Assembly: GCA_964291335.2 (NCBI GenBank)
Contig: OZ219748.1
Location: 683,711-747,710, forward strand
Reading direction: 5' to 3'
Length of the DNA stretch: 64,000 bases
Source of the DNA: Dehalococcoidia bacterium
GTDB taxonomy: Bacteria; Chloroflexota; Dehalococcoidia; Lucifugimonadales; UBA3495
Part shown: piece by piece, positions 12,701 through 34,919 of the stretch
How positions within the stretch are numbered: the first letter of the stretch is position 1
Layout: each line of letters opens with the position of its first letter
Program-made: the position numbers and the translations under genes
The notes under the pieces: generated by a model
What the model was told of the DNA's origin: nothing
The model's database searches: none
The model's input: the letters and a program-made list of their open reading frames with translations, nothing else

Positions 12701-15700
12701 CAAGGAGGTAGTTTCAATCCTCACCCACCCGAAAGGGTGGGTGCTACATCAATTGCATCTGCCAGCCGGGATTGATACACATCATGTTTCAATCCTCACC
12801 CACCCGAAAGGGTGGGTGCTACCGTCAGCGCAGCGGCGGGTGAAACGCAGCGCCCCAAAGTTTCAATCCTCACCCACCCGAAAGGGTGGGTGCTACGCCG
12901 CCGCATAGCCATTATACCACCGCTACCACATGTTTCAATCCTCACCCACCCGAAAGGGTGGGTGCTACCTGATACAAATCGCTGACAACCTGATACAAAT
13001 CGGGCTGTTTCAATCCTCACCCACCCGAAAGGGTGGGTGCTACCGGCGGTGCCTTGCCCCCCTATCCGACCTGGCGGGTTTCAATCCTCACCCACCCGAA
13101 AGGGTGGGTGCTACGTTCCGGCGGGGTTAGCCTTGGGTGCAACGGCAGCAGTTTCAATCCTCACCCACCCGAAAGGGTGGGTGCTACCCGACGGGGGACG
13201 CCCAGGACGCCGGCGTAGGGTCAGTTTCAATCCTCACCCACCCGAAAGGGTGGGTGCTACACGGCCTGAAGGCGGCAACCCCGCCTTGCTGTAAGGGTTT
13301 CAATCCTCACCCACCCGAAAGGGTGGGTGCTACCGGTGGGGGCCCATCTGGTACTGCGTCCCGTGCGGGTTTCAATCCTCACCCACCCGAAAGGGTGGGT
13401 GCTACGCCGGATGGTAGCGTTGCAAACGCTGTAAGGGCAAATGTTTCAATCCTCACCCACCCGAAAGGGTGGGTGCTACTCGGCGGCTGACTCGTCAATG
13501 CAGTCGCAAACGCCGTTTCAATCCTCACCCACCCGAAAGGGTGGGTGCTACTTTTGCCTATTGACAAAATCGGTATATATCCCTAGTTTCAATCCTCACC
13601 CACCCGAAAGGGTGGGTGCTACCGACAGAAGGGCGGGCGGCTACGGAGACGACAGGATGTTTCAATCCTCACCCACCCGAAAGGGTGGGTGCTACACCGT
13701 CAAAAGGTCGGGGCCCAATCTCTCGTAACATAGTTTCAATCCTCACCCACCCGAAAGGGTGGGTGCTACTGTAGCTACCGAGACGTCCCAGACGGGCACT
13801 GGGGGGGTTTCAATCCTCACCCACCCGAAAGGGTGGGTGCTACACTCCAGGGAAAGATTGTGCAGGTCAGGTGATTGTTTCAATCCTCACCCACCCGAAA
13901 GGGTGGGTGCTACCTGACTATTAGAAACGCGACCAGCGTGTTCTAGATGTTTCAATCCTCACCCACCCGAAAGGGTGGGTGCTACCGCCGGCGCCGTTCC
14001 CGGCAGGCGTCGCAAAGGGAGTTTCAATCCTCACCCACCCGAAAGGGTGGGTGCTACCTGGCAAACCCTGGGCCATCCGCCAAAGCTCCGGCGGGTTTCA
14101 ATCCTCACCCACCCGAAAGGGTGGGTGCTACTCCTCGGCCTGGAGCGGGGTAATCCCCCGCCCCTGCCAGTTTCAATCCTCACCCACCCGAAAGGGTGGG
14201 TGCTACTCCAGGGCGGCTGGTAGGGCTCGGCCAGGGCTACCAAGTTTCAATCCTCACCCACCCGAAAGGGTGGGTGCTACAAAATGAGGTGGCACGGCGG
14301 GTGAGAGAGGATGAAGTTTCAATCCTCACCCACCCGAAAGGGTGGGTGCTACGCCACGAATTCCTGTATCCGGGCAAGCTCTTTGAGGTTTCAATCCTCA
14401 CCCACCCGAAAGGGTGGGTGCTACTCCCCCGCCCCTGCCAGAAAGCCAGAAGGCCTGCGGTTTCAATCCTCACCCACCCGAAAGGGTGGGTGCTACCGCC
14501 CCGGGGCCACCCACAGAGCAATCGCCCGCCGTTTCAATCCTCACCCACCCGAAAGGGTGGGTGCTACCCTACCCTTTGTTAGGTTAGGGGCAGGCCCCTA
14601 ACGGTTTCAATCCTCACCCACCCGAAAGGGTGGGTGCTACGGCGTCCCGGCCGCGCTGGGCCGTCTGGTACGCCTGTTTCAATCCTCACCCACCCGAAAG
14701 GGTGGGTGCTACGCCGCTGCCGCCGCCCTATACGGGCGAAACACGGTTTCAATCCTCACCCACCCGAAAGGGTGGGTGCTACGCGAGTGACGCGCCGGGA
14801 GGCCCAACCTGGCTGGGGTTTCAATCCTCACCCACCCGAAAGGGTGGGTGCTACTACGAGGCAAAGTACGCAAAAATGATGGACGGAGCGTTTCAATCCT
14901 CACCCACCCGAAAGGGTGGGTGCTACCGCCGAGGCAGCCCGCCCCCCCACGCCGATTTTGGTGTTTCAATCCTCACCCACCCGAAAGGGTGGGTGCTACT
15001 ATCCTTTCAGCGTCTCCGGGCCACCCCTGTAAGGGTTTCAATCCTCACCCACCCGAAAGGGTGGGTGCTACTTTCGGTCCTCGTCGATTTTATCGTGGCG
15101 ATACGGAGTTTCAATCCTCACCCACCCGAAAGGGTGGGTGCTACGGCCTTGCCGAAGTTACCGGGCCACCGGGCCTTGCCGTTTCAATCCTCACCCACCC
15201 GAAAGGGTGGGTGCTACAACAAGGGCCGCATTTTGCATTGCATTATGTAAACTGTTTCAATCCTCACCCACCCGAAAGGGTGGGTGCTACCTTACATATA
15301 TAATCTGATTGTGTACCTTAAAAGTTGTTTCAATCCTCACCCACCCGAAAGGGTGGGTGCTACCCGGTAACTCGGTGGCCCGGTAACTTCGCCTTATAGC
15401 TGTTTCAATCCTCACCCACCCGAAAGGGTGGGTGCTACACAAATGGCTGGTGGGCTGGCTGACGGCCAACCGGGTTTCAATCCTCACCCACCCGAAAGGG
15501 TGGGTGCTACGAAAGGCTATCGGCGGATGATTTGGGGCATATGGGGTTTCAATCCTCACCCACCCGAAAGGGTGGGTGCTACCTTCCTGCCGTCCGGCTT
15601 CTCCGGCTCCGGCTCGTGGTTTCAATCCTCACCCACCCGAAAGGGTGGGTGCTACTTCTATTGTTTCCGGGTTTTGCCACATAAAGAAAGAGTTTCAATC

Positions 15701-17916
15701 CTCACCCACCCGAAAGGGTGGGTGCTACAGCGCCCTGACAACGGCCGCTGGCTGGGGTGCAGGGTTTCAATCCTCACCCACCCGAAAGGGTGGGTGCTAC
15801 ATTTTGGGCAACCACAAAACGCCCCCGGCTGACCGGTTTCAATCCTCACCCACCCGAAAGGGTGGGTGCTACCCCTGCCGCCGTGGCTTTATCCGGGACG
15901 ACGTGGTAGTTTCAATCCTCACCCACCCGAAAGGGTGGGTGCTACGATGAGCGCCGGCGCGATTTGAGGGGTGGATTGATGGTTTCAATCCTCACCCACC
16001 CGAAAGGGTGGGTGCTACCCGGCTGGCAGCGTTATATCCTCGTTCTCCAGACGGGTTTCAATCCTCACCCACCCTTTCGGGTGGGTGCTACGCCCTGCTG
16101 TACGCTACAGGGTACGCAACCTGTACGGTTTCAATCCTCACCCACCCGAAAGGGTGGGTGCTACATACGCCGCAAGCAGCGCCGGTTAAGCCGTTGCAAG
16201 GTTTCAATCCTCACCCACCCGAAAGGGTGGGTGCTACGCGCAGGTTCGCCCGGCGCTGCCGGTAGTCCTGTAGTTTCAATCCTCACCCACCCGAAAGGGT
16301 GGGTGCTACCGCTCCGGAGGTAGGGGGCGGCGGCGGCAACCAGGGTTTCAATCCTCACCCACCCGAAAGGGTGGGTGCTACGCGGCTATCTGCAAATGGT
16401 CGGACTACCGGGCGGAGTTTCAATCCTCACCCACCCGAAAGGGTGGGTGCTACCGCCCGTAGGCTGCATGATGCTTGGCGGGCGCAGGATGTTTCAATCC
16501 TCACCCACCCGAAAGGGTGGGTGCTACTTGTGCTTTTGCGCCGAGCGGTGATACCAGGGCAGGTTTCAATCCTCACCCACCCGAAAGGGTGGGTGCTACA
16601 ACCTCGGCGACATTTTCGTTGTCGTCCATATCAGGGTTTCAATCCTCACCCACCCGAAAGGGTGGGTGCTACCGTGGCGTGGGCGTGGCCAGTAGCTAAA
16701 ATGACCCAGTTTCAATCCTCACCCACCCGAAAGGGTGGGTGCTACTCTCTGCCCAGAGGTGATAATGTTTGTAGGGAGATGTTTCAATCCTCACCCACCC
16801 GAAAGGGTGGGTGCTACCTCGGTGGCGTGGGCGTGGCGGTACACGCCGGGTTGTTTCAATCCTCACCCACCCGAAAGGGTGGGTGCTACAAGTCGCTTCT
16901 TGAGAGTTACTCTCAATGTAGGCCGGTTTCAATCCTCACCCACCCGAAAGGGTGGGTGCTACCTGCCCGGAAACCGGCGTAGCCGACTGGACAACCCGGG
17001 TTTCAATCCTCACCCACCCTTTCGGGTGGGTGCTACACGGATAACAACATTGTGATTAACAGCGATGATGAGTTTCAATCCTCACCCACCCGAAAGGGTG
17101 GGTGCTACGCCCGGGTTTTGGCTTCCCCGTGCCAGGGCAGGCGTGTTTCAATCCTCACCCACCCGAAAGGGTGGGTGCTACGCCGGTCTGGTAGGCCTCC
17201 TCGGCGGCGTCGTCGAGGTTTCAATCCTCACCCACCCGAAAGGGTGGGTGCTACCGAGCCCGGCTGGACTGTCCAGCACGGCGTACCCGTGTTTCAATCC
17301 TCACCCACCCGAAAGGGTGGGTGCTACCGGCGTTGCAGGCCGCAAAGTGTGCGTCTGCACGGCTGTTTCAATCCTCACCCACCCGAAAGGGTGGGTGCTA
17401 CCTCGGCCTGGGCCCGGCGCCATGCGGATGCGCCGACATGTTTCAATCCTCACCCACCCGAAAGGGTGGGTGCTACGGCACCCCGCTACCCGCTAGCCCC
17501 CCCCGGCCCCGGTTTCAATCCTCACCCACCCGAAAGGGTGGGTGCTACGACCGGCTGCCCCGACTGCGCCGCCGACCCCAGCACTGTTTCAATCCTCACC
17601 CACCCGAAAGGGTGGGTGCTACGCCTGCACGCCGCCGCACGCCCGCCCAGGCCCCCTGGTTTCAATCCTCACCCACCCGAAAGGGTGGGTGCTACTGGAG
17701 ACGGCACTCGACCACCTCTAGGCCCCCCCCCCGGTTTCAATCCTCACCCACCCGAAAGGGTGGGTGCTACGTCCCCAGACGGGCAGAAGAAGACTGTCCG
17801 AGTGATGTTTCAATCCTCACCCACCCGAAAGGGTGGGTGCTACCTCCAGAGAACGTGCCACCCCACGCTATCCCACCGGGTTTCAATCCTCACCCACCCG
17901 AAAGGGTGGGTGCTAC
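9757..17916 (-). repeat. Trailer-side block of 113 repeats: 104 with plus-strand loop GAAA (UUUC in crRNA), 9 with TTTC
   Basis: TTTC-type repeats start at 9757, 9830, 10262, 10336, 10912, 11125, 12278, 16055 and 17000. All other repeats in this block carry GAAA on the plus strand. Confidence 0.9.
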
Positions 17917-17951
17917 TCGAGCGCCTGGTCCACATGCGACTGGGCGGCCTC

Positions 17952-20900
17952 GTTTCAATCCTCACCCACCCTTTCGGGTGGGTGCTACTACCTTCCCGGC
18001 TTCCCGGCCTTTTGCGCGTGGCCGGGTTTCAATCCTCACCCACCCTTTCGGGTGGGTGCTACCTTGAGTAGTATCAGCAGTGGCAAGGCATAAAACGGTT
18101 TCAATCCTCACCCACCCTTTCGGGTGGGTGCTACCTCCAGGGCAGGGAGTGCTAATCCCTGCCCTGTTAGTTTCAATCCTCACCCACCCTTTCGGGTGGG
18201 TGCTACTTGGCTTCAGTCATTGAAGCCGTAACCGCTTCGCTGTTTCAATCCTCACCCACCCTTTCGGGTGGGTGCTACCTTTGGTTGGGTAACCCTACTA
18301 CGAAGCCGGAAACGGTTTCAATCCTCACCCACCCTTTCGGGTGGGTGCTACGCTTTGGCTTCCGCAAATGCGGAAGTTGCTTCCCTGGTTTCAATCCTCA
18401 CCCACCCTTTCGGGTGGGTGCTACCACGCCCACGCCGGGCAGTCGGTACAGGTACACCGTTTCAATCCTCACCCACCCTTTCGGGTGGGTGCTACCTACC
18501 AAACGGACGCTTTATTTTGCATAGCATTATGTGTTTCAATCCTCACCCACCCTTTCGGGTGGGTGCTACCCACCAAAGCGTCTGACGCGGTGGCCAGAGC
18601 AGCTCAAGTTTCAATCCTCACCCACCCTTTCGGGTGGGTGCTACAACTCCGTGCCTCAATGTAACAGCTTTTCCACTGGTGTTTCAATCCTCACCCACCC
18701 TTTCGGGTGGGTGCTACACATAGTCAGGTATTTTATATCCTAGTTGTTTAGTAGTTTCAATCCTCACCCACCCTTTCGGGTGGGTGCTACTGACGCCGCC
18801 CCCGGCATGTTCCGTGACCTGCTAGTTTCAATCCTCACCCACCCTTTCGGGTGGGTGCTACCGGGCAGCCAGGGCAACCCCTGGAGTGGCTGCTGTCGTT
18901 TCAATCCTCACCCACCCTTTCGGGTGGGTGCTACGGCCGCCGTTTCCCCGTCGTAGCAATTAAAGCTGCAGTTTCAATCCTCACCCACCCTTTCGGGTGG
19001 GTGCTACGCTTTGCCATTGCTCCAGCCTACCCCACCGCTGGCGGTTTCAATCCTCACCCACCCTTTCGGGTGGGTGCTACCCTCGGCCGGCATCCGGATG
19101 CCGGCCCAGCCCCCGAGTTTCAATCCTCACCCACCCTTTCGGGTGGGTGCTACCGGCTGACGCCCACCGGTTCCGCTTGCGCAAAATATGGTTTCAATCC
19201 TCACCCACCCTTTCGGGTGGGTGCTACCCGGGTAGTGCGCCGGGTTGCCGCTCTGGGGCCGGATGTTTCAATCCTCACCCACCCTTTCGGGTGGGTGCTA
19301 CGAGCCGCTGCCGGGGCAGCCGCCCCGCGCCGACAGGTTTCAATCCTCACCCACCCTTTCGGGTGGGTGCTACTGTAGGCAATATACAGATTTTGTCAAC
19401 AGGTAAAAGTTTCAATCCTCACCCACCCTTTCGGGTGGGTGCTACCCCAGCCCGACCAGATACACCCCCAGCATTTTCAGGTTTCAATCCTCACCCACCC
19501 TTTCGGGTGGGTGCTACTGGCAATCCGAAGGAAATATACGCAAAACCCAGCAGGTTTCAATCCTCACCCACCCTTTCGGGTGGGTGCTACGGGGCCGTTC
19601 CGGTCGGGAAACCGGGTTTCCGGGCGTTTCAATCCTCACCCACCCTTTCGGGTGGGTGCTACCCCCCAGGACGGCCAAACGGCTTACGGAGAGGCAAGTT
19701 TCAATCCTCACCCACCCTTTCGGGTGGGTGCTACAATCACTCCGCCGGCAATGTTGCCCAAGCTCAAACTGTTTCAATCCTCACCCACCCTTTCGGGTGG
19801 GTGCTACCCGGGTGTCCGGCGGCAAGGGTTCCTGGCAATTCCGGTTTCAATCCTCACCCACCCTTTCGGGTGGGTGCTACGTCAGGCTCTATGGTCTCCT
19901 CGGTCACGTACGGGCTGTTTCAATCCTCACCCACCCTTTCGGGTGGGTGCTACCTCTGCCCGCAGGATGCGATCCAGCCATTCCAGCGGGGTTTCAATCC
20001 TCACCCACCCTTTCGGGTGGGTGCTACGGCCGGCGCCGGCGTCCAGGTCAGCCGATTACGCTGTTTCAATCCTCACCCACCCTTTCGGGTGGGTGCTACA
20101 TTTTTATCCGCAGCGGCCCGTCCTGGTATTCACTAGTTTCAATCCTCACCCACCCTTTCGGGTGGGTGCTACACCGGGGCTTGCGCTGGAGGTGCACGGG
20201 CCAGCACACGTTTCAATCCTCACCCACCCTTTCGGGTGGGTGCTACCGCCGGACGCCTAACCGTAGGAGGATGAGGATTATGGTTTCAATCCTCACCCAC
20301 CCTTTCGGGTGGGTGCTACCTGGGCGCCGCATAGCCATTGTACCACTGCTACCACATGTTTCAATCCTCACCCACCCTTTCGGGTGGGTGCTACCGGCGG
20401 CGGAGTATCGGCGGGCGGCCACCCAAACGAGGGTTTCAATCCTCACCCACCCTTTCGGGTGGGTGCTACCGGCGTGGCGGTAGGTATAACCGGCAGGAGA
20501 ACGTGGTTTCAATCCTCACCCACCCTTTCGGGTGGGTGCTACCATTGCCCCACTAGGCGGCAGCACCCCGGCCCCCGGTTTCAATCCTCACCCACCCTTT
20601 CGGGTGGGTGCTACCGGTTTCGCCCGCGGTTATAATGGCGCAGTAGAAAGGTTTCAATCCTCACCCACCCTTTCGGGTGGGTGCTACCCTTTGACCTTAC
20701 AGCCCATTTTGAGGCTATGCAGGTTTCAATCCTCACCCACCCTTTCGGGTGGGTGCTACGTCCCGTCTGCCCACCCTGACTTTTCAGCATAAGGTTTCAA
20801 TCCTCACCCACCCTTTCGGGTGGGTGCTACCATTTGCGGGGTTAGCCTTGGGTGCAGCGGCAGCAGTTTCAATCCTCACCCACCCTTTCGGGTGGGTGCT

Positions 20901-23580
20901 ACGCCCTGTTCTCTGGATTGCGCTGACGGGCTGCCGGTTTCAATCCTCACCCACCCTTTCGGGTGGGTGCTACCTGCCAGTAGCCGGGTTCGCCGGCGCC
21001 GGCGCAGCGGTTTCAATCCTCACCCACCCTTTCGGGTGGGTGCTACGGCAAGGGCGCCGACAGAAAAACGCTCGACGCCCTGTTTCAATCCTCACCCACC
21101 CTTTCGGGTGGGTGCTACACTACTACGACCCCCTGACGCCGGCCCAGATTGGGGTTTCAATCCTCACCCACCCTTTCGGGTGGGTGCTACCGCCGCTGCC
21201 TCGGTCGGTATATCCCCGGCCAGCCGTTTCAATCCTCACCCACCCTTTCGGGTGGGTGCTACAAGCGCCCTGCGTCAACCGCTGCGGCGCGTGGGTGGGT
21301 TTCAATCCTCACCCACCCTTTCGGGTGGGTGCTACGGCTCTGGCTGGGAGCCAACCACACCCCTAGCCCGGTTTCAATCCTCACCCACCCTTTCGGGTGG
21401 GTGCTACCGGCTACCAGTTCCTGGACGGTCGCCAGTTCTTTGAGGTTTCAATCCTCACCCACCCTTTCGGGTGGGTGCTACCCCACGCCCCGGTGCAGTA
21501 TTTCGCCCTGGACGATGTTTCAATCCTCACCCACCCTTTCGGGTGGGTGCTACCCGTCAGCTGCCGAACCCGGCCAAAGGAACCGGGGGTTTCAATCCTC
21601 ACCCACCCTTTCGGGTGGGTGCTACGTCCATCCCCTCGCCGGCTATCTCACCCACCCAGCTGTTTCAATCCTCACCCACCCTTTCGGGTGGGTGCTACAG
21701 CTACGCTTCCTAGGGTGCGAAGGTACGCAACGCTGTTTCAATCCTCACCCACCCTTTCGGGTGGGTGCTACGGCTGACTATCTAACCGACCTGACGCAAG
21801 TCAGTCTGTTTCAATCCTCACCCACCCTTTCGGGTGGGTGCTACAGCCGGAAGCCGGGAAGGTACGGAAGCGAAGCCGGGTTTCAATCCTCACCCACCCT
21901 TTCGGGTGGGTGCTACCGGCTTCCGGCCTTGCGTACCTTCGCACGCGCAAAGTTTCAATCCTCACCCACCCTTTCGGGTGGGTGCTACCCGTTCCTGGTC
22001 CGTTACGGTTACCGAGTAGTCCCCGTTTCAATCCTCACCCACCCTTTCGGGTGGGTGCTACCTTGGTTGCTGTCGGCATGGCCGTTTACAGCGGAGGGTT
22101 TCAATCCTCACCCACCCTTTCGGGTGGGTGCTACCCAGGATACCCCACTACTCGTTTGTCTTTATTGATGTTTCAATCCTCACCCACCCTTTCGGGTGGG
22201 TGCTACTAGTATCCGGGCCGTAGCCAACCAATACCGGGGGCTGTTTCAATCCTCACCCACCCTTTCGGGTGGGTGCTACTACCGGCATTGTTTCCCCGCG
22301 CTGCCGATGAGGTTGTTTCAATCCTCACCCACCCTTTCGGGTGGGTGCTACGTGGACGCCGAAGACCTGACGGCGCCGGAGATACTGTTTCAATCCTCAC
22401 CCACCCTTTCGGGTGGGTGCTACTTGCTAGGGTTTGATACATTCCTGCGGTGCGTCAGGGTTTCAATCCTCACCCACCCTTTCGGGTGGGTGCTACCAGG
22501 TCATACCAATGCTGCGTTTCAGACTGCCAGGGTTTCAATCCTCACCCACCCTTTCGGGTGGGTGCTACCGCAGGGACCTTTGCCATAGGTGCCGGTCTCA
22601 GCTGTTTCAATCCTCACCCACCCTTTCGGGTGGGTGCTACGCGATATAATCATCCCACCCCTTTTGCTCCCCGCCGGTTTCAATCCTCACCCACCCTTTC
22701 GGGTGGGTGCTACAGGGGAAAATTGCGCCATTCGTTCCAGGCCAGAACGTTTCAATCCTCACCCACCCTTTCGGGTGGGTGCTACTATGCCTTTCAGGAT
22801 ACGGGCGGCGTCCCGGTAGGGGTTTCAATCCTCACCCACCCTTTCGGGTGGGTGCTACCCTCCTTACCTGCGGAATCTGTTCCGGTCATTGGAAGTTTCA
22901 ATCCTCACCCACCCTTTCGGGTGGGTGCTACGGTTGTTTTGACTGCCCAAAATGCGCAAATTTGAGTTTCAATCCTCACCCACCCTTTCGGGTGGGTGCT
23001 ACTCCGGCTTCCGGCCTTGCGTACCTTCGCACGCGCAAAGTTTCAATCCTCACCCACCCTTTCGGGTGGGTGCTACTCGATAATCCCGTCCAATATAATG
23101 CCGACGGCTTCGTTTCAATCCTCACCCACCCTTTCGGGTGGGTGCTACGTGTCCTCAAACTGCAAGGTAGCTCGGTGTCTCCCGTTTCAATCCTCACCCA
23201 CCCTTTCGGGTGGGTGCTACCAGCCCGCTATGGAGATACTGGAGCGGGCCAGAGGTTTCAATCCTCACCCACCCTTTCGGGTGGGTGCTACGGGTGTGGG
23301 GAGCCTGCTTGCGGCAGTTGCGCGTGTTTCAATCCTCACCCACCCTTTCGGGTGGGTGCTACCCCAGGTCCCCCAGCGCAACATCTTCACCCAGCAGGTT
23401 TCAATCCTCACCCACCCTTTCGGGTGGGTGCTACCAAGGTGCAGCAGTATCTGCTGTCGGTGGACGCCGGGTTTCAATCCTCACCCACCCTTTCGGGTGG
23501 GTGCTACCCGCAAAAGTGCGCCAGGCCTTCCGGGGGCTGAAGAGTTTCAATCCTCACCCACCCTTTCGGGTGGGTGCTAC
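17952..23580 (-). repeat. Leader-side block of 78 consecutive repeats, all with plus-strand loop TTTC (GAAA tetraloop in crRNA)
   Basis: Every repeat from 17952 to 23580 reads ...cacccaccctttcgggtgggtg.... The plus-frame repeat peptides change uniformly from PKGWV/TRKGGCY/PERVGAT to PFGWV/TLSGGCY/PFRVGAT. Confidence 0.9.
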
Positions 23581-23732: not shown

Positions 23733-24089
23733 TCACGCGAGCAGCGGACCGCTGAAGTCAATCACGTTGCTTATTCCATATTCCTCGACTCGGTGTTCAC
23801 GTCCGCCGGGAATCTTGTAAAACCGGATGCTGTCTTCATTCTCGTCTATGATGCCAAGTAGCCTGGCCTTCATTTCAAGGAAATTTGTGTCGCTGACCGT
23901 GCATTCAAAAACCGACTTTTGGACCCGCTGACCGTAGTCTTCACAGGTCTTTGCCACCCGCCGCAGACGTGAACGCCCGGCCGCGGTTTCAGTGCTGACA
24001 TCATAAGTAACCAGAATCCACACTATGTTCACCGCTATATATAATATCGAGGTGTGCGTGTGTGAGACCAGAATCCACCCTATGTTCAC
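23733..24089 (-). CDS. cas2: CRISPR-associated endoribonuclease Cas2
   Basis: Cas2 core WILVTYDVSTE...RLRRVAKTCEDYGQRVQKSVFEC...IRFY. Two in-frame GTG starts (24089, overlapping the cas1 stop, and 24032) lie in the two copies of a 25-bp duplication. The shorter form (23733-24032) is probably the functional one. Confidence 0.9.
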   Translation of the reverse strand: MNIGWILVSHTHTSILYIAVNIVWILVTYDVSTETAAGRSRLRRVAKTCEDYGQRVQKSVFECTVSDTNFLEMKARLLGIIDENEDSIRFYKIPGGREHRVEEYGISNVIDFSGPLLA

Positions 24090-24091
24090 CG
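24010..24091. repeat. 25-bp direct duplication of the cas1-stop/cas2-start junction flanking a 32-bp insert (period 57 bp)
   Basis: accagaatccac[a/c]ctatgttcaccg occurs at 24010-24034 and 24067-24091 (24/25 identical). The intervening ctatatataatatcgaggtgtgcgtgtgtgag (24035-24066) has a composition unlike its surroundings. Confidence 0.85.
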
Positions 24092-25120
24092 GGCCACAAA
24101 GGCAGGATAGTGCTCCAGGTCTCCTCGCAAATGGCGTGCCAGTAATCGGGCCTGAAGGTGGGGCAAGAGCCCCACCGGTGTCTTCTGCTGCGCCAACGGA
24201 TGCGTTATCTCCTCTGCCTTTCGCTTCTGATAGGTTACCAGCAGCGTTTTCCTGCCTTCCTCAGTTAGAGAAACTCCACCGCCCAGGCTGCTTGCGAAGT
24301 GCGCTGCGGTCAGCTGTCGCCGGTTAATCAGCGTCAACGCCAGACGGTCAGCCAGGAACGAGCGAAACTCTTCCATCAGATCAAGGGCCAATGATGGACG
24401 ACCAGGTCGGACCGCGTGAAGAAAACCAATTTGAGGGTCCAAACCGACGCCCTCACAGGCGGCCTGGCATTCTGCCCGGACCAGCGCGTAGAGGAAAGAT
24501 AACATGGCGTTAATCGGGTCCCGCGGCGGTCGCCGATTTCTGCCGTCGAAGCTGAAGGCCGAGTCCGGTGAACGTATCAAATGGTTGAAAACTGAGAAGT
24601 AAACCGCGCCGGCACGTCCCTCGTTGCCACGAATTTCGTTCAGGTCACCGGTTTTTTTAAGATCCATAATGGTATCTGCCATGGACTTTGCGGCAAGCCG
24701 TAAATCAGCTTCCGCTTCGGGTTCCCGCGTCTGACGCGCTTCTCGCATCAGGAGTAAGCGCCCGTTCTGCACCTTGGCAGCTACGATGTTTCGGGCAATG
24801 GCGGCAGAGCGCTCGTGGTCCCGATAGGCCTCGTGCTGCGCCAGCCGCAACAGCACATTCCCCGAGGTCGGGCCTACCACTTTTGCTCGAAATCTACCGC
24901 TGCGGCTGAGAAAGACCAGGTCACGCTGGTCTTCAGCGCATTGCGCCATGGCGGCCGGAGATACGCTTACCCTGCCGAAGCAGACCACTGCCCCCAAATG
25001 GTGCACCGGGACCTGCAGGATTGTCCCTCCGTCCGCTTCAACTTTGAGGGTGCGGTGATCAACATGTACGTAGGCCCCTTGCGTGGTAACGTACAGGGTG
25101 TTGAGTAATTCGCGGGCCAC
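24086..25120 (-). CDS. cas1: CRISPR-associated endonuclease Cas1, type I-C
   Basis: 344-aa ORF: N-terminal LLNTLYVTTQGAYV...TLKV beta-domain, then an alpha-helical catalytic domain (GNEGRAGAVYF, RRPPRDPINAMLSFLYALV, GFLH, SLALDLMEEFR). Confidence 0.95.
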   Translation of the reverse strand: MARELLNTLYVTTQGAYVHVDHRTLKVEADGGTILQVPVHHLGAVVCFGRVSVSPAAMAQCAEDQRDLVFLSRSGRFRAKVVGPTSGNVLLRLAQHEAYRDHERSAAIARNIVAAKVQNGRLLLMREARQTREPEAEADLRLAAKSMADTIMDLKKTGDLNEIRGNEGRAGAVYFSVFNHLIRSPDSAFSFDGRNRRPPRDPINAMLSFLYALVRAECQAACEGVGLDPQIGFLHAVRPGRPSLALDLMEEFRSFLADRLALTLINRRQLTAAHFASSLGGGVSLTEEGRKTLLVTYQKRKAEEITHPLAQQKTPVGLLPHLQARLLARHLRGDLEHYPAFVAR

Positions 25121-25151: not shown

Positions 25152-25823
25152 TCAATCCGACTTCGACATGGACTGCCGGACGGGTTTGTTTGTCCCGACG
25201 ACAAACAACTGAGTCTGGTACTGCCGGTTCCTGTCCTGTTTTGACACCACGAACGGCAGGCAGGATTCTACCAGCGAACAGTTGCGGCATCGGGCGTCGG
25301 CCACCGCCGGCGGCAGTACGGGTTCGCTCATCAGCTGCCGGATTGCCGATACTGCCTTTTTCATTTGCTCACGCAATGCGGTTGTGAATTCTACCTCCCG
25401 TCGTTGACGGGAGGAAAAGTGATAGACGGCGCCCACCGGGACTTCCGTGGCGAGCATTTCTTCAAGGCAAACCGCCTGGCCGCAAAGCTGAAGATCGGCG
25501 TGGCGGCCCTGGCGTGCTGGACCATGCTTGTATTCGACGGGGTATGGCGTAACGCCGTGGAATTCTACCAGGTCGGCTTTGCCCAGCAGCCCCAGCGATT
25601 CGGACCACAGCGGCACAGCGTATTCGGTGCGCACGCCGTCGACGGTAGCAACGCCGGATTGATCCACCCGCTCGTGCACTGCGTTGCCGCGGAGGGTGTA
25701 CACGTTCTCATCATAGGTCTGCTCCCGGTGAATCAGGGCGCATTGCCGCGGGCAGTAGCTGTAGTGTTCCAGCATGGACAGCAGCACATAGTCTTCAAAT
25801 TCTGAAATCAGCGGTTCCATCAT
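25152..25823 (-). CDS. cas4: CRISPR-associated exonuclease Cas4 (RecB-like, Fe-S)
   Basis: YSYCPRQCAL N-terminal Cys, DLVEF...PVEYK nuclease core, and C-terminal CRNCSLVESC cysteine cluster. Confidence 0.93.
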   Translation of the reverse strand: MMEPLISEFEDYVLLSMLEHYSYCPRQCALIHREQTYDENVYTLRGNAVHERVDQSGVATVDGVRTEYAVPLWSESLGLLGKADLVEFHGVTPYPVEYKHGPARQGRHADLQLCGQAVCLEEMLATEVPVGAVYHFSSRQRREVEFTTALREQMKKAVSAIRQLMSEPVLPPAVADARCRNCSLVESCLPFVVSKQDRNRQYQTQLFVVGTNKPVRQSMSKSD

Positions 25824-25925: not shown

Positions 25926-26822
25926 TCAGGCGTCGAGCCTGGCAATGCTGACGCCCGTGGGCAAATCGGTTTCGTCCAGCGTCACCGAATAATCCGCGAA
26001 ACGGCGTGGCACGGTCGCATTACCTTTCTGCTTTACTTCCAGCCTTTCGAATAACCGGTGGGCCGGGGCGTTGCCCAACCGGCTTTCGTGGGAGAACACG
26101 TACAAACCCCGGCAGGCCATCATGCCCCTGGCTGATGAGCGGTCTAGGTCCCACATGTTGACCAGAGCTTCCCAGAACAGTTCCAAATCTGCTGCGTTGG
26201 CGCCGGTGTGCCGGGCAAAGTGGGGGTTGAAAAACCCGTAACCCCGGTAAAGGCCGTAGGGCACAGTGGACTTGCGCCCCAGCGTGCCGTGGGTGGGAGC
26301 CTCGTTTTCGTCTTCCTCGTTTTCGGCCCTGCGTTCACCGCGGTTTTCCAACGCAACCCTGGCTATGGTCGAATCCATCGCCAGAATTGGATCGACCGAA
26401 CGGGAGAAGGTCAGTTGCACTGGGCCGCGTACTTGCCCGGCGTTACGCTCCCGCATACTCATCACGGCGCCGAACATTCGAATATCGTAAAACTGCTCGC
26501 ACAACCATGGTTGCGCCTGCCGCGGCGTGGGGTCGTCGTTCTCGTCGCGTCTTTCCGCAAAGACACGGCCCCGGGTTTCGGTGAGGTAGGTGTCGCGCTG
26601 GACGTAAATCTTGTACCGGGATTCATCCCCTCGGGCAGCATCTACATAGTCCCTGACCTTGCGTTTGAGGGACACATCGGTGACAATGCCCTGCATGGTT
26701 TCGGGGTCCATCCGTGGCTGATTGCCGGCGTCCGGGTCTCCGTTGGGGTTGCCATCCTGCACATCAAACAGGATGATGAAATCCTGCCGTCGGTCAACGT
26801 CGTTGTAGGGTTGGGTGGTCAT
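25926..26822 (-). CDS. cas7: Cascade backbone subunit Cas7 (Csd2), type I-C
   Basis: FDVQDGNPNGDPDAGNQPRMDPETMQGIVTDVSLKRKVRDYV is the characteristic Csd2/Cas7c N-terminal signature. 298 aa. Confidence 0.93.
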   Translation of the reverse strand: MTTQPYNDVDRRQDFIILFDVQDGNPNGDPDAGNQPRMDPETMQGIVTDVSLKRKVRDYVDAARGDESRYKIYVQRDTYLTETRGRVFAERRDENDDPTPRQAQPWLCEQFYDIRMFGAVMSMRERNAGQVRGPVQLTFSRSVDPILAMDSTIARVALENRGERRAENEEDENEAPTHGTLGRKSTVPYGLYRGYGFFNPHFARHTGANAADLELFWEALVNMWDLDRSSARGMMACRGLYVFSHESRLGNAPAHRLFERLEVKQKGNATVPRRFADYSVTLDETDLPTGVSIARLDA

Positions 26823-26846: not shown

Positions 26847-28553
26847 TTACGCGTCGGTTTCGTTGTGGGCCTCATTCTGCTGCGCATTGCGTCGGGCTGT
26901 GGCTTCCTGCGCCCTTCGACTGTTGTCGGCGCGTTGATGGTAGTATCCGAGGGCAAAGTGTCCTTGCTGTTCCAGGTTCAGCGTCTTGGGGAACCCGTTC
27001 AGGTTGGACATGATTTCTTCCATCGTATTCTCAATGGCTATACGCGCGCCCCGGTCGTTCCGGTTCAGTGTGTGGAGATGCCCGCGCACCCCTTTGAGCA
27101 GCAGGGGGAACACCGCCCCGGGAGCGGTGGACGCCGTGCCATAATACCGGTCAGCGATGGTTGCATTGACGTGGGGTATCGCTCTATTTTGAGCGCGTTC
27201 CAGCGTATAGAACAGCCGCCCGCAGAGGTAGCCCGGATCCGTGTTCTCTTTGTCGATTTCCACCATGTAGTCCTCCTGATGATTGCATTGCCGGGGCTGG
27301 CTGAGCAGCGCCAGCTTGATTAGAGCGGCGCGGCGTCTGGGAACTTTGCGTTCTGCCTGGCAGCGGCGGATCGCCTGCTGCAATATCTGGGGTGGCACCG
27401 GGTCGCCGTTGAATGCCGCCTTGATGAGGGCCCGGGGCGTCGTGACCGGCAGGTCTTTGCGGTCTCTAACGGTGGCGTTAGCCAGCGCTGATACCCCGTA
27501 GTATCGGTTCTCGTTATCATAGCCGGGGGCGACTCGCTGTCGTTGGAAGTAGAGCGCCAGGTTCTCCTTGACGCTGCCCACGGTGGTGTTGAGCCAGTCG
27601 CGCACCACCGCTCTGCCGCCGGACGCTGACAGCGACAGTGCGTAAAAGTCCGCTTCGTCAAGGTTCGTCCGGCGTCCGAGCCTCGCCGATTCAAGCAAGG
27701 CTTGCACATTCTGCGGTTCCGGGGCGGATAATATTCCCAGGAAGTTGAAACCGGGATCCTCGCGGGTCCAGAAGACGAAGGCGCCGTTGCCGGTTATGAA
27801 CCGGGTGGAGGCGCCGGACAGCAGGTCGTTGAGGCCCCGAGTGAACCCTTCGGCGCATTCCTGGCAGATTGGGGCTACCTGGGACGCTTGCAGACCGTAG
27901 GACTCGAAGGCGTCGCTGTTTGCCGAAATGATGCTGGTGCCTGAGGTTTGCCCGCCAGGGATACCCTTGACTTTGGATTGCAGCCTTTCCAGTACGGGAC
28001 GGTTTTCGCCGCAGACCAGGCACTGCATGGTTGTCCCGTCAGGCTCGTTGATGGTGGCCCAGAACCGTTGCACCGCCGGGTTGTCAATCACGTAACGGCC
28101 GTCAACCTCGAAGGTGATGATCGCCCCACTGTCAAAATCGTCGCCCAGTTCCAGGCTTCGCAGCGGCTCGTTCTTGAGGAAAGATAGAACTGCCTGGACA
28201 TCCGGTTCTCCAGTTGCGGCGGCGCAGCGTTCCACCAGGTCCACGTAGGCGGCGTGGGCTTTCTGCGCTCGTTCAGCCTGCTTGCCGGTTTTCGACCGGC
28301 CCAACGTGTAGTCGGACGGACTGGCCAGCAGCAGCGGTCGAATGCCGGAAGTACGCTGCACCTGGGGCAGCAACCGGCGCTTTCCCCGTCTAGTTCGAGG
28401 CGCCTTCGGGTCGCTCAAATCAATCGGCTGCGGGCTGTGGCATTCTCCATTGGGAGACAGCGCAATGACGTAGCGCAGCGCGCCCTCTGCATAGAGTTTG
28501 GGCGCCGGCGTTTCGTTTCTCTGCGCGTATTCAACCAGTTTGTTCAGCATCAT
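26847..28553 (-). CDS. cas8c: Cascade large subunit Cas8c (Csd1), type I-C
   Basis: 568-aa ORF lying between cas5 and cas7, the position and size of Csd1. It has a CLVCG..CQEC zinc-like cysteine pairs region and a helical C-terminus. Its 4-nt overlap with cas5 suggests translational coupling. Confidence 0.85.
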   Translation of the reverse strand: MMLNKLVEYAQRNETPAPKLYAEGALRYVIALSPNGECHSPQPIDLSDPKAPRTRRGKRRLLPQVQRTSGIRPLLLASPSDYTLGRSKTGKQAERAQKAHAAYVDLVERCAAATGEPDVQAVLSFLKNEPLRSLELGDDFDSGAIITFEVDGRYVIDNPAVQRFWATINEPDGTTMQCLVCGENRPVLERLQSKVKGIPGGQTSGTSIISANSDAFESYGLQASQVAPICQECAEGFTRGLNDLLSGASTRFITGNGAFVFWTREDPGFNFLGILSAPEPQNVQALLESARLGRRTNLDEADFYALSLSASGGRAVVRDWLNTTVGSVKENLALYFQRQRVAPGYDNENRYYGVSALANATVRDRKDLPVTTPRALIKAAFNGDPVPPQILQQAIRRCQAERKVPRRRAALIKLALLSQPRQCNHQEDYMVEIDKENTDPGYLCGRLFYTLERAQNRAIPHVNATIADRYYGTASTAPGAVFPLLLKGVRGHLHTLNRNDRGARIAIENTMEEIMSNLNGFPKTLNLEQQGHFALGYYHQRADNSRRAQEATARRNAQQNEAHNETDA

Positions 28554-29212
28554 TCTGAAGCCTCCCGGTCTGAAAGATAAGGTATTCGCAGTACGCCCTG
28601 CTCCAGGCGCGCGTTGAAAAATCGCGGCGTAGCGGCGCCGTTGTTCCGGGGGGCATAGGTCAAATCCAGCAGCATACTGCCCAGGTCTTCGGTAAGGGGA
28701 ATAGGGGTTTCCGTGCCATCCGGCGCAGAGAACCTGGCCCAGAACTCCCGGCAGCCCAGGTAGGGCGTAGCGAAACAGCGGCCGGCATTCACCCGCCGCC
28801 GGAACTGGTCTCGGTACTTGGCCGGGTCTTCAGCCCCGCTTTTGACTATCACCTGAGCTTTGATGATGTAGGCGACGTCGCGAAGGGCGAGGGTGTGCCT
28901 TTGGGCCCGGTTTCTGCTGTTGGCGGCGTCAAAACCGCCGCCCTCTCGCTGCCACCGGCGCGCCGTCTGGGCAGTCTGACGCGAGTCGATTTCATTGCGG
29001 AGGATGGAGGCGTACCGGATGGGCTTGAGCGCCTGGATTTCCTCCACCTGCCAGGCAAATTCCGGCTTCCAGCAAATCGCTTCCAGTATCCCTTTGGCTG
29101 CCGTCGGCGTCATAACCGGGTAAGAGACCCGCTCAACTTTCATCTCCGGCCTGGTGAAGCAGGCGAAGTCGCCTTCAACTTTCACTGCCAGCGGGGGGTG
29201 TTCATCGGTCAT
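28550..29212 (-). CDS. cas5: Cas5d (Cas5, type I-C; pre-crRNA endoribonuclease)
   Basis: VKVEGDFACFTRPEMKVERVSYPVMTPTAAKGILEAICWKPEF is the typical Cas5d N-terminus. 220 aa. Confidence 0.92.
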   Translation of the reverse strand: MTDEHPPLAVKVEGDFACFTRPEMKVERVSYPVMTPTAAKGILEAICWKPEFAWQVEEIQALKPIRYASILRNEIDSRQTAQTARRWQREGGGFDAANSRNRAQRHTLALRDVAYIIKAQVIVKSGAEDPAKYRDQFRRRVNAGRCFATPYLGCREFWARFSAPDGTETPIPLTEDLGSMLLDLTYAPRNNGAATPRFFNARLEQGVLRIPYLSDREASE

Positions 29213-29218
29213 TTATCC

Positions 29219-29282
29219 CTGCCTCGCCGTTTTATCGACCATTATAAATACAGCTTTTCAATCCTCATCCTGTTGGATGCAC
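29219..29282 (-). ncRNA. Orphan degenerate CRISPR repeat (psi-repeat, 29255-29282) plus adjoining psi-spacer; candidate CreR/CreA-like regulatory mini-CRISPR or Cas5d processing site in the cas5 5' UTR
   Basis: Minus strand reads GTG-CATCC-AACA-GGATG-AGGATTGAAAA; the true repeat reads GTAG-CACCCACCC-GAAA-GGGTGGGTG-AGGATTGAAAC. The psi-repeat keeps a hairpin and 10/11 nt of the post-stem handle, and 12 consecutive nt (29256-29267) are identical to the repeat. No second flanking repeat could be supported. Confidence 0.55.
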
Positions 29283-29288
29283 TAGACA

Positions 29289-29320
29289 GCTGGCCGCCAG
29301 GCCGCGGCCTGGCGGCCAGC
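29289..29320. repeat. Perfect 32-bp GC-rich palindrome in the cas3-cas5 spacer
   Basis: gctggccgccaggccgcggcctggcggccagc is fully self-complementary. No U-tract follows it on the cas strand. Confidence 0.85.
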
Positions 29321-29355
29321 CTCAGCTTCAGCCCCCGACTGGCTGGCGGGCAGCA

Positions 29356-29375
29356 TTCGTTGTATTTATTATGGT
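29356..29375 (+). promoter_or_regulatory. TTC-flanked partial match to the psi-spacer (candidate Cascade operator), overlapping an AT-rich palindromic region 3' of cas3
   Basis: TTC (29356-29358) is followed by GTTGTATTTATTATGGT (29359-29375). This matches the psi-spacer 5' end GCTGTATTTATAATGGT at 15/17 positions. The adjacent 8-2-8 palindrome is atggtaatgtattaccat (29371-29388). Confidence 0.4.
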
Positions 29376-29396
29376 AATGTATTACCATGGGGGAAG

Positions 29397-31583
29397 TCAA
29401 GCGATGAGGGTATCTGGGTCAATCGTCGTTACGCCTCCGATGCCGGTGATTTCGTTGTAGGCGCCGCGCCATTCGTACAGGCCAGGCATAATTTCATCGA
29501 GCAGACCGGCGCGTTCCTTTTCGAGCGCTTCCCTCCGGTAAAGCGATACTGCCCATGGCTGCATCTGTCGCAGCAGGTGGCGGGTGTTCTTGCTGCCTCT
29601 GCGCAGCGCAGCTATCGCGTCGAGTATCTTCGGCCATTCTTCAAGTTTATCAGCGGCCCGGAACGCCGTTTCGCCGGTTACTACTGCGGACACCGTATCA
29701 TCGTCAATCATCTTGAACTGCCGGGCAACTTCGGGGTAGTCGAAGGCTTTGCGTTTTTCCTGCACCTGGCAAGCGTCTGTTGCGACATCCTGGTACAGGC
29801 GGCGGAAATATTCCGCTGCTACGTCGGGGTCGTCAAGGTCATCGTGGCCGGCGTTGAGCATGGCTATGGTTCTCTCTGTTGCTGTCCGGTAGTTGCCAGG
29901 GGGGAACGTTCCCGTCTCGGGTTGGAACACTATAACTCGCCCTTCGTCCAGCGATCCGTTGCGGTTGCAGCGCCCGGCGGCCTGGATGATGCTGTCCATT
30001 GGCCCGATGGCGCGCAATACCATGGGGAAGTCGAGGTCAACGCCCGCCTCAACCACCTGGGTCGAAACTACGCGGCACGGTTCCCCGTTGCCCAGACGTT
30101 GGCGTATCTCAGCGATGACCGCCTCGCGGTGTCGTCCGCACAGCAGGGTTGAGAGATGCAGCGCGGTTTCTTCGTTCAAGGCGGCCAGCAGCGCCAGAGC
30201 GTCCTTTTTGGTGTTCACTACCGCCAGGGCTTGCGGCATCTCGCGCATGCTGGCGGCCACTTCGTCCCATGACGGTCGCGGGTCGGTGCGCCACTCGTAA
30301 CGAACCCTTTTCAAGAGATGAAAGTGCTTCTCCGGCGATGGCACGATGTCATGGGCATTCACATCGGCAAAGGGTTTGATTGCCTGAAACGACGGCTGGG
30401 TGGCGGTGGACAGCACTACACTGGAGCCGTAGTTTTCCGCCAGGTCTCGTAGTCCGTCCAGAATTGGCTCCAGAAGCCTTGGGGGCAACGCCTGGGCTTC
30501 GTCCAGGATGATGACGCTGCGGGTCAGATTATGCAGTTTGCGTGTGGAACTGGTGCGGTTTGAGAAGAGGCTGTTGAAAAGCTGAACGGTGGTGGTAACC
30601 ACCACTGAAGCATCCCAGTTTTCGCTGGCCAGTTTGGCCTGAATCGCTTTCGGGGAGTATTCATCCGGGTCGTCAGTCTCTGCTGACGAGTGATGCTCCA
30701 GCACGGCTGAATCCCCGAGGAATTCCCGGTACACGCTGGCCGTCTGTTGGGTGATGGAGATAAAGGGTACGGCGACAATCACCCGGTCCAGGCCGTGACT
30801 TGCCGCGTGGCGCAGGGCAAAACCCATGCCGGATAAGGTCTTGCCGCCGCCGGTAGGGACGGCCAGGCGGAAAATGCCTGGCGGCCTTTCGGCTGCGGTC
30901 AGGCAGGCGTCGTACACTGCCGAGCGGACTTCGTTGACTGAACTGGTCGCCGCGCCGGTTTGGACCGTTTCCCGATGCCGCTTGCTGAATCTCTGCCACA
31001 GGTCCGCCACCGGTATGCTCGGCCTGCGCTGTGCTGCCTGCTGCGGGTTGAAGTGCGCTTCGGTATCCAGATAGTCGGCGTCCACCAGCGCCGAGAACAC
31101 CATCCTTAGCCACATCTCGGCGCGGTAGGGCGTTGTGCTAACCCATTGCGGTAGCTTTACCGGGGTTTGCGGCTCCAGTTGGGGCATGGCTTGGCGTGCG
31201 CAGGCGATTGCGTTTTCCGTTGCCGGGTTGCTGTCTTTCTCATCGAGCCAACTTTTACAGTGCCTCATCTCCCGCAGGCCGCCGTGATGTCCTTGCACCA
31301 ACAGGGCCAGAGGTTCCAGGTATTGCCAGGCCAGTTTGGCGCCGGCGCCTTTGTGGTCCGGCCCCTGTTGGCGCTCCCCGACAAGATACCGCTGGAACTC
31401 TGGGTTGAACTTGCCCAGGTCATGCCACAAGCCGGCGTAGTACCCGGCGTCGTGGCTGTCAAAGGGTTTGCAGAACTCTCCGGCAATTTTCGCCACCGCA
31501 GTCAGGTGGTCAACCAATCCGTGGCAGATGTTGTCCTCGTTGGCCGAGTGCGCGTAAAATTCGATCATTGTTTCACCCTTCAT
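29397..31583 (-). CDS. cas3: Cas3 helicase-nuclease (HD domain plus DEAD/DEAH helicase)
   Basis: N-terminal HD domain (YAHS..., GLWHDLGKFNPEFQ). Helicase motifs AVPTGGGKTLSG (Walker A), VIILDEAQAL (DEAx) and VVSTQVVEAGVDLDF. An alternative start is MIEFY at 31568. Confidence 0.95.
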   Translation of the reverse strand: MKGETMIEFYAHSANEDNICHGLVDHLTAVAKIAGEFCKPFDSHDAGYYAGLWHDLGKFNPEFQRYLVGERQQGPDHKGAGAKLAWQYLEPLALLVQGHHGGLREMRHCKSWLDEKDSNPATENAIACARQAMPQLEPQTPVKLPQWVSTTPYRAEMWLRMVFSALVDADYLDTEAHFNPQQAAQRRPSIPVADLWQRFSKRHRETVQTGAATSSVNEVRSAVYDACLTAAERPPGIFRLAVPTGGGKTLSGMGFALRHAASHGLDRVIVAVPFISITQQTASVYREFLGDSAVLEHHSSAETDDPDEYSPKAIQAKLASENWDASVVVTTTVQLFNSLFSNRTSSTRKLHNLTRSVIILDEAQALPPRLLEPILDGLRDLAENYGSSVVLSTATQPSFQAIKPFADVNAHDIVPSPEKHFHLLKRVRYEWRTDPRPSWDEVAASMREMPQALAVVNTKKDALALLAALNEETALHLSTLLCGRHREAVIAEIRQRLGNGEPCRVVSTQVVEAGVDLDFPMVLRAIGPMDSIIQAAGRCNRNGSLDEGRVIVFQPETGTFPPGNYRTATERTIAMLNAGHDDLDDPDVAAEYFRRLYQDVATDACQVQEKRKAFDYPEVARQFKMIDDDTVSAVVTGETAFRAADKLEEWPKILDAIAALRRGSKNTRHLLRQMQPWAVSLYRREALEKERAGLLDEIMPGLYEWRGAYNEITGIGGVTTIDPDTLIA

Positions 31584-33512: not shown

Positions 33513-33809
33513 GGTCTTCTCCTTGTCGGCATGGCTGGCGCTGCGGAAGTGTCCAAGGTGAACTGGCCGAAGACCAGCAGCGTGGATGCCAGGCCGTTAT
33601 CGGCGCCGGTATGCCGTCTTCGTTGATGGTTACATCGACCCGGGCGGCGCCGGCTCCAGGGGCGGATTGACTTTAGCGGTTGGCCCGGTCAGGGGTAAAG
33701 AAGCAAGTGTCAGTAGGGTTGTCGGATGCGGTTAAGAGAGTGGGCGGTCAGAGGCGGCGGATTGCCCCCGGTCGGTTCCCGTTATCCGGCCAGAGGCATT
33801 AATCTTCGC

Positions 33810-34619: not shown

Positions 34620-34919
34620 TATGCTTTCCTTGAAAGGGTATTGTCTCAATTATACCAGTTTCAGGCCGGCGCAGGGCAGGAAAACTGACCAGGCTTTACC
34701 GGCTGCCAGGTATTCCCCAGGCGCAGGCGGGGAAACCCGGGGCAGTGGCGCCGCGCCGGCCCCGGTGATTGGCTTGCTTGGGAGCTTGCTTTCAGGTTGT
34801 GCGCCAGTCCGCAGCCAGCGCCTTGCTCCCACCAGTAATCCAACGGCTGGAGCGGTTTGGAGGAGGCGCTTGAGCGTGCCATTCCGTCTCCATCAGTCGG
34901 TTTAACCGGGAGGCGGCGG

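Follow-up and report, generated by a model that had tools for sequence, protein, structure and literature searches.

Why would a CRISPR (clustered and regularly interspaced short palindromic repeat) locus carry a piece of its own repeat outside the array, between two of its cas genes? The question is raised by a type I-C locus of a Dehalococcoidia bacterium (Chloroflexota) on contig OZ219748.1, of which we analysed a stretch of 64,000 nucleotides (positions 683,711 to 747,710; hereafter the window, with coordinates counted from its first letter). cas3 and cas5c are separated by a gap of 184 bp, which contains, on the minus strand (the cas strand), a repeat-like unit and, directly after it, a guide-like sequence that matches a site in the same gap. 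A first-pass annotation had read this arrangement as CreR-type feedback on Cascade. Our results favour that reading through a match flanked by a protospacer-adjacent motif (PAM), a six-base periodicity of the mismatches, and the co-variation of guide and site. We consider it probable, at roughly 70%, that the element is a solitary repeat unit (SRU) encoding a CreR-type CRISPR RNA (crRNA)-like regulatory RNA (crlRNA) in the leader of the Cascade operon.

A single repeat-like unit directly upstream of cas5c

The unit opens with the hairpin CATCC-AACA-GGATG (psiR; 29266..29279, minus strand), which has a 5-bp stem and a folding energy of -6.1 kcal/mol; the Cas5c cut is predicted immediately 3' of it. 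There follows AGGATTGAAAA (29255..29265, minus strand), the equivalent of the 11-nt 5' handle, identical at 10 of 11 positions to AGGATTGAAAC of the true repeat. The repeat consensus was taken from the 190-repeat array of the window (9757..23580, minus strand) and reads, on the cas strand, GTAGCACCCACCC-(GAAA/TTTC)-GGGTGGGTG-AGGATTGAAAC; the unit mirrors this order, with its hairpin abutting the handle. In a 12-mer count, TGAGGATTGAAA was found 190 times in the array and at a single other place in the 64 kb (29256-29267), where shuffled sequence gave an expectation of 0.00, which bears out the earlier claim that 12 nt of identity to the repeat exceed chance.

Only one repeat-like unit is present. 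Its guide (psiS; 29213..29254, minus strand) is also the 5' untranslated region (5'UTR) of cas5, and the distance from the handle to the cas5c ATG is 42 nt. Guide positions 1-17 (GCTGTATTTATAATGGT, 29254..29238, minus strand) match the target, positions 30-33 (29225..29222) form the Shine-Dalgarno sequence GAGG, and positions 43-45 are the cas5 ATG itself.

The guide matches a PAM-flanked site in the same gap

The target site, or protospacer, is GTTGTATTTATTATGGTA (29359..29376, plus strand). It is inverted relative to the guide, lies 105 nt upstream of it, and is preceded on the non-target strand by 5'-TTC (29356..29358, plus strand), the cognate PAM trinucleotide. Guide and site agree at 15 of 18 positions, with mismatches at 2, 12 and 18; within the first 17 nt of the site (GTTGTATTTATTATGGT, 29359-29375, plus strand) the agreement is 15/17, with mismatches at 2 and 12, and no pairing extends past position 17. 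None of 500 shuffled guides matched the intergenic region equally well. The 15/17 TTC-flanked match reported earlier is confirmed; the same inverted repeat was also recovered independently, as pair I2. On re-reading, everything that the first-pass annotation had stated about the sequence of the hairpin, handle, guide, site and TTC was correct.

The guide has no other strong site flanked by a PAM within the window. A search for further guide targets there, including the CRISPR leader and a cluster resembling a defence island, returned background matches only, without a PAM.

Mismatches fall on every sixth base in related type I-C loci

Cas5 similarity was used to gather type I-C loci from collections of genomes, metagenomes and proteins, and the cas3-cas5 gaps of these loci were read. 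Among species-representative genomes and JGI metagenomes the closest relative had about 71% Cas5 identity, and closer ones came from a large protein collection. The gaps were mostly shorter than 60 nt, and many of the long ones carried a ATTGAAAC-like handle. For each of these we took the 18 nt after the handle and searched the same gap for the best ungapped match, ignoring the PAM. The best matches reached 13-16/18 in locus after locus and yielded 19 distinct guide/site pairs. The trinucleotide flanking the site was TTC in 12 of them, TTT in 5, TTA in 1 and CTC in 1; as background, TTC would be expected at about 2% of sites (P=1.8e-16). Site and guide were in either direct or inverted orientation, and the guide always began directly after the handle. 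The repeat unit lay on the cas strand in 13 pairs and was antisense, adjoining cas3, in 6.

Mismatches summed over the 19 pairs, for guide positions 1 to 18, were 0, 2, 1, 0, 0, 15, 3, 4, 2, 0, 0, 16, 1, 2, 3, 3, 7 and 16. Positions 6, 12 and 18 thus account for 47 mismatches in 57 comparisons, against 28 in 285 at all other positions (Fisher p=2.9e-28), and the periodicity persisted when a single representative of the window's clade was kept (p=6.8e-23). Type I Cascade is known to flip out every sixth base of its guide, leaving it unpaired. To our knowledge, no protein operator, mobile-element end or RNA hairpin has such a six-base mismatch pattern. The periodic mismatches are as expected for Cascade-type pairing and, judged by sequence, would fit none of the other mechanisms considered. 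The mismatch at position 12 of the window, listed in the first-pass annotation, and the further one at 18 fall on bases that Cascade leaves unpaired. Flipped-out sixth bases are likewise noted in a preprint on type I-C units (bioRxiv 10.1101/2024.12.27.630466).

Guide and site co-vary in the window's clade

Five loci, L163, L081, L162, L190 and L192, share the whole architecture of the window, with Cas5 proteins 77-100% identical to its own, and were aligned with it (alignment A4). The window and L163 have the guide GCTGTATTTATAATGGTC, the PAM TTC and the site GTTGTATTTATTATGGTA. In L081 the guide GCTGTAGTTATAATGGTC faces a TTA-flanked site, GCTGTCTTTATCATGGTA; in L162 the guide GCTGTAGCTATGATGGTC faces GCTGTAGCTATCACTTTA, flanked by TTC. 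The PAM is TTT in the remaining two, where GCTGTGGCTATGATGGTC is paired with GCTGTACGTATCATGGTA (L190) and GCTGCGAACATGATAGTC with GCTGCTAATATAATAGTC (L192). Across the six loci guide and site both change yet stay matched at positions 5, 7, 8 and 15, and position 12 is mismatched in every one.

The alignment also contains two hairpins in the leader between site and unit. HP1 (29334..29350, minus strand) has a 6-bp stem and the loop AGCCA, with 94% of cells paired. HP2 (29289..29320, minus strand) is a perfect 32-nt GC-rich palindrome, found also as inverted pair I1, with no U-run after it. Over all helices of the alignment, 17 pairs were changed on both sides, compared with 7.2+/-1.8 in shuffled alignments (0/500 reached the observed value) and 2-5 in slid controls. 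These 17 comprise 4 guide/site pairs, 4 of the 6 pairs of HP1, 7 of the 15 pairs of HP2, and 2 of the 5 pairs of the repeat-like hairpin, where, for example, a T-A pair in the window corresponds to C-G in L081 and in the true repeat. The handle core GGATTGAAA was invariant across the six loci, and the spacing from handle to ATG stayed within 38-42 nt throughout the clade (38 nt in L190 and L192). A guide that doubles as the cas5 5'UTR was found in L190 and L192, and also in L028 and L186 (each 45 nt to the ATG) and in L001.

Hairpin, handle, PAM and match are therefore conserved together in related loci, a comparison that the first-pass annotation had proposed. What is directly established is the anatomy of the element, together with selection for PAM-flanked complementarity of the Cascade pattern. 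These comparative data support a selected regulator that would act as a crRNA-like RNA.

The site overlaps a predicted promoter

On the cas strand a predicted -35 box, TTGACT (29395..29400, minus strand), is followed after 18 nt by a predicted -10 box, TACCAT (29371..29376, minus strand), which overlaps guide-match positions 13-18. TTGACT-N18-TACCAT was the only sigma-70-like match in 28900-29700. The PAM is at about +7 relative to this predicted promoter. A Cascade bound here would thus lie across both the -10 box and the start site.

The boxes are kept at 17-18 nt spacing in all six loci of the clade, and the sequence between them has diverged. TTGAC is invariant; the -10 hexamer is TACCAT in the window, L163, L081 and L190, TAAAGT in L162 and TATTAT in L192. 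An internal promoter, which the first-pass annotation had considered plausible, is thus a reasonable prediction, with its -10 box overlapped by the target. A palindrome at 29371-29388, to which the same annotation had drawn attention, does exist but is not conserved in relatives, and was rejected as an operator. The TGA stop codon of cas3 lies inside the TTGAC of the predicted -35 box in six of six loci (window, L081, L162, L163, L190 and L192).

Elsewhere the target is placed differently, at about +10 to +35 in L001, L002 and L003 and abutting the -35 box in L071 and L075. The latter placement is that of the Neisseria Nezha promoter, where the target also abuts the -35 box (bioRxiv 10.1101/2024.12.27.630466).

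The 184-bp gap contains no conserved open reading frame (ORF) that could be a cargo gene. A candidate peptide, MLPASQSGAEAEAGRQAAAWRPAV, from a 24-codon ORF was rejected as a conserved gene: no Shine-Dalgarno sequence precedes it, L190 and L192 lack its ATG, and its substitutions track the pairing of the stems and not the codons. An Rfam search found nothing near threshold, the best E values being 0.15-0.6 (among them Chloroflexi-1, whose 18 bits fall short of the cutoff of 80). HP1 and HP2 show no similarity to the repeat, and a second repeat upstream of the unit was dismissed, as the true repeat, aligned locally to HP1 and HP2 in four loci, did not outscore shuffled sequence.

Comparison with described Cascade-guiding units

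The first-pass annotation took the element to be more novel than it is. Its CreR-type reading is supported, but in type I-C loci solitary units upstream of cas5c had already been demonstrated by experiment (bioRxiv 10.1101/2024.12.27.630466) and CreR-like elements predicted (bioRxiv 10.1101/2023.03.10.532045). CreR has been demonstrated in type I-B, I-E and V-A systems, and type I-C candidates, found manually, are predicted only (Liu et al., bioRxiv 10.1101/2023.03.10.532045). In Neisseria, the Nezha, Gabija and 'CRISIS' loci have type I-C SRUs just upstream of cas5c; small-RNA sequencing (sRNA-seq) revealed crRNA-like RNAs of 48-50 nt with an 11-nt 5' handle and a 3' end falling in the loop of a 3' hairpin. 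Their match is 16 bp long, with a mismatch at 6 and the PAM TTC or TTA, and in reporters they repress, roughly 21-fold, the promoters of defence genes inserted between cas3 and cas5c (bioRxiv 10.1101/2024.12.27.630466). Because SRUs have been shown in type I-C loci of Neisseria and CreR has been described, the window element is not a new kind but belongs to an already described kind of Cascade-repressing repeat unit.

The resemblance to the Neisseria units is close. In both, cas5c is directly preceded by a single unit whose hairpin leads into a conserved 11-nt handle; the match covers about 16-17 PAM-proximal nt and leaves positions 6 and 12 unpaired; TTC or TTA serves as the PAM; and the target is at a promoter (here a predicted one) downstream of cas3. 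The window differs from them in its host, a member of the Chloroflexota, in having no protein cargo between target and unit, so that the regulated genes would be the Cascade genes, and in a unit without a 3' hairpin, whose guide runs straight into the cas5 Shine-Dalgarno sequence and ATG. Its target overlaps the predicted -10 box, whereas the Neisseria target flanks the -35 box. The two co-varying hairpins between site and unit set it apart from the described cases.

With CreR the element shares a degenerate CRISPR unit within the cas locus, a guide partly matching a PAM-flanked effector promoter (a predicted one here), and a logic of autorepression that would sense crRNA load and anti-CRISPRs. 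CreR, however, has two degenerate repeats (psiR1 and psiR2), and the window element has one, inside a 5'UTR. Haloarchaeal type I-B CreTA similarly uses a partially matching crRNA-like RNA to direct Cascade to a nearby promoter, which is repressed without DNA cleavage; unlike CreTA, the window has no recognisable toxin gene, and the small ORF of its leader is not conserved. The type II tracr-L and scaRNA systems offer a more distant parallel, in that natural guides of limited complementarity make the effector repress its own promoter or others, but their effector is Cas9, and both the architecture of the RNA and the logic of the PAM are different.

Proposed mechanism of Cascade feedback

The element most likely serves autorepression of cas5c-cas8c-cas7 in the manner of CreR, which is the best-supported reading of these sequences. 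Its transcription, cleavage and repression steps are drawn from Cas5c biochemistry and from experiments in other systems, and they are put forward by analogy. A sigma-70-type promoter just after cas3, with the -35 box TTGACT that includes the cas3 stop and the -10 box TACCAT (both predicted and conserved), would fire to produce a leader of about 150 nt, containing HP1, HP2, the repeat-like hairpin, the handle and the guide, and running into cas5c-cas8c-cas7. Cas5c would then cut 3' of the repeat-like hairpin and leave the 11-nt handle AGGAUUGAAAA, as its biochemistry and the Neisseria sRNA-seq suggest. Cascade assembled on the handle and guide would bind the TTC-flanked site over the -10 box and the transcription start. 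As pairing stops at about 17 nt, this binding would proceed without a full R-loop and without recruiting Cas3, and RNA polymerase would be blocked. The outcome would be negative feedback on Cascade. By analogy with published work on CreR, crRNAs from the 190-repeat array, competing for Cascade, or anti-CRISPRs would relieve the repression.

Several observations weigh against this account. The conservation of HP1 and HP2 is not explained by the autorepression model. The predicted promoter matches the consensus at only 9 of 12 positions, and binding could be weakened by the mismatch that the window has at seed position 2 (rC opposite dA). The 3' hairpin of characterised type I-C crlRNAs is not present here: neither a 3' hairpin nor a second repeat was found downstream of the guide in the window's clade, where the region is less structured than shuffles (z=+1.1), in contrast to the strong hairpins that start at guide positions 27-39 in L002, L071, L075 and L133. 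Lastly, L186 has a repeat unit with no detectable target, and L188 and L191 have short gaps and no repeat unit.

The seed mismatch noted by the first-pass annotation is real but specific to the window and L163, and is absent in L081, L162, L190 and L192. A 3' hairpin or second degenerate repeat, although a feature of the characterised cases, is probably inessential to the mechanism, and the missing second psi-repeat, listed earlier as a weak point, is not a weakness, because type I-C cases are as a rule single-repeat units. Since L186 has no target and L188 and L191 no unit, the putative circuit is dispensable, though common among type I-C loci.

Alternative explanations

We also entertain, as an unlikely possibility, that the guide is not a separate small RNA but the 5' end of the Cascade mRNA itself. 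The cas5c-cas8c-cas7 message cut by Cas5c would then begin with handle and guide, and Cascade assembling there would mask the ribosome-binding site; were the RNA trimmed to the 48-50 nt of the Neisseria crlRNAs, the Shine-Dalgarno sequence would be severed from the AUG. A given transcript would be either translated or made into a repressor guide, and HP1 and HP2 might set the balance. Distinctly less probable is that the unit controls a cargo of the CreTA or CRISIS type, the payload being the structured leader, HP1 plus HP2, an RNA that would be toxic or active in some other way and that inhibition of Cascade would release. The leader does fill the slot, between target and repeat unit, where type I-C loci carry cargo, its two hairpins co-vary strongly, and the same gap elsewhere holds small ORFs preceded by a Shine-Dalgarno sequence (L071, L075), hydrophobic ORFs (L049, L057, L140, L148) or a HEPN gene (L187, L189). 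Against such a payload stand the lack of a Shine-Dalgarno sequence before the 24-codon ORF and of its ATG in L190 and L192, the absence of a terminator between leader and cas5, and the lack of similarity to any Rfam family; moreover, cas5 is co-directional and would for that reason be repressed in either case.

The remaining possibilities dispense with a guided Cascade altogether. One is a processing site only, at which Cas5c would cut the cas3-cas5 transcript and so uncouple or stabilise the Cascade mRNA, the inverted match being incidental; the first-pass annotation had raised such a cut, uncoupling cas3 from Cascade expression, as a non-exclusive alternative. The conservation of hairpin and handle 38-42 nt before the cas5 ATG across the clade agrees with this, but the PAM, the mismatches at 6, 12 and 18 and the co-variation of guide and site are left unexplained, and we rate it as improbable. 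We give still less credit to a protein-regulator operator or to the ends of an insertion resembling a miniature inverted-repeat transposable element (MITE), of which the repeat-like 12-mer would be a relic. A GC-rich palindromic core flanked by AT-rich arms would suit them, and the search for copies was confined to the 64-kb window; within it, the element and leader have no second copy. The position is conserved among loci whose Cas5 proteins are 77-100% identical, which argues against mobility; unrelated loci have direct as well as inverted guide/site pairs, always starting directly after the handle; and protein operators do not have a six-base periodicity of mismatches. That the element is what is left of a former repeat-spacer unit, decaying and without function, is just as hard to credit. 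The degenerate repeat, the mismatch at seed position 2 and the relatives without target or unit point that way, but compensatory changes and invariant handle bases persist although the flanking intergenic sequence has diverged, and evidence of selection is already present.

A phage-encoded mimic of the unit was considered as well; another preprint lists phage mimics aimed at type I-C loci. A scan of IMG/VR with the 18-mer GAGGATTGAAAAGCTGTA returned 22 viral contigs (L164-L185), which represent one unrelated conserved phage region. As the identity ends after GCTGTA and is limited to that region, we regard it as a single chance event and rejected the candidate.

Surrounding locus and gap contents in relatives

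The minus strand of the window encodes a complete type I-C system. cas3 (29397..31583, minus strand; 728 aa) matched Cas3 HD and helicase models, and cas5c (28550..29212, minus strand), the predicted processing nuclease and the first gene of the operon that would be regulated, matched TIGR01876 at 1.9e-43. The Cascade genes cas8c (26847..28553) and cas7 (25926..26822), followed by cas4 (25152..25823), cas1 (24086..25120) and cas2 (23733..24089), all on the minus strand, had profile matches. The array holds two repeat variants whose sole difference is the hairpin loop, reverse-complemented between them. The GAAA form (as read on the plus strand) has 102-103 copies at 9913-17891, and the TTTC form, with 87 copies, is found at 17963-23555 and as the two oldest repeats, at 9768 and 9841; a degenerate terminal repeat copy lies near 9700.

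Upstream of cas3, a cluster at 35395-46814 (minus strand) resembles a defence island. It encodes a DUF1828 protein, a DUF6978-like protein, a 1244-aa Eco57I-type methylase and two PLD+SNF2 helicases (1078 and 942 aa), and recalls SNF2/methylase clusters reported as regulated by type I-C systems; no guide matches were found there. A 21-nt tandem repeat of 7.9 copies, also readable with a 42-nt period, occupies 34300-34465 inside two overlapping ORFs (33726-34688, plus strand; 33810-34649, minus strand), neither with a Pfam match.

Some relatives have genes in the cas3-cas5 gap. In L187 (5974-6504) and L189 (5986-6504), whose Cas5 proteins are 84% and 80% identical to that of the window, it is filled by a HEPN-domain gene of 172-176 aa that overlaps the cas5 start, and a repeat unit was not detected in either gap; this gene may be a cargo of the CRISPR-supervised kind. 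L049, L057, L140 and L148 have an antisense repeat unit beside the cas3 stop and a hydrophobic ORF of about 55 aa before cas5, and L071 (about 3800-3890) and L075 have ORFs of 28-30 aa with a Shine-Dalgarno sequence between promoter and unit. It is possible that the small ORFs of these six loci are CreT-type toxin cargo.

L001 (Oscillochloris) has, at 3900-4000, two handles 31 nt apart (GGATTGAAAC twice) with short, near-identical guides, in effect a mini-array of truncated repeats, whose first guide matches a TTT-flanked site at 16/18. The homologous targets of L001 and L002, TATTTAGTGGATGTACA and TATTTAGTAGATGTACA, lie in a hairpin loop in opposite orientations, as though a flip had occurred of the stretch that the inverted stem arms enclose.

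Significance

Autoregulation of the CreR type has so far been only predicted for type I-C systems. The element described here extends the self-regulation of Cascade by degenerate repeats, as a sequence-based proposal, to cargo-free type I-C loci of a little-studied Chloroflexota lineage. Handle, PAM-flanked partial match and mismatches at 6, 12 and 18 together form a sequence-only signature that lends itself to automatic annotation. The compact form, in which the guide is the cas5 5'UTR, is well suited to asking whether guide production and translation compete; if the guide is indeed the 5' end of the Cascade message, a post-transcriptional layer acting in cis would be added on top of the transcriptional feedback. 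With a 190-spacer array competing for Cascade, such a circuit would adjust effector production to the crRNA load and increase it when anti-CRISPRs sequester Cascade.

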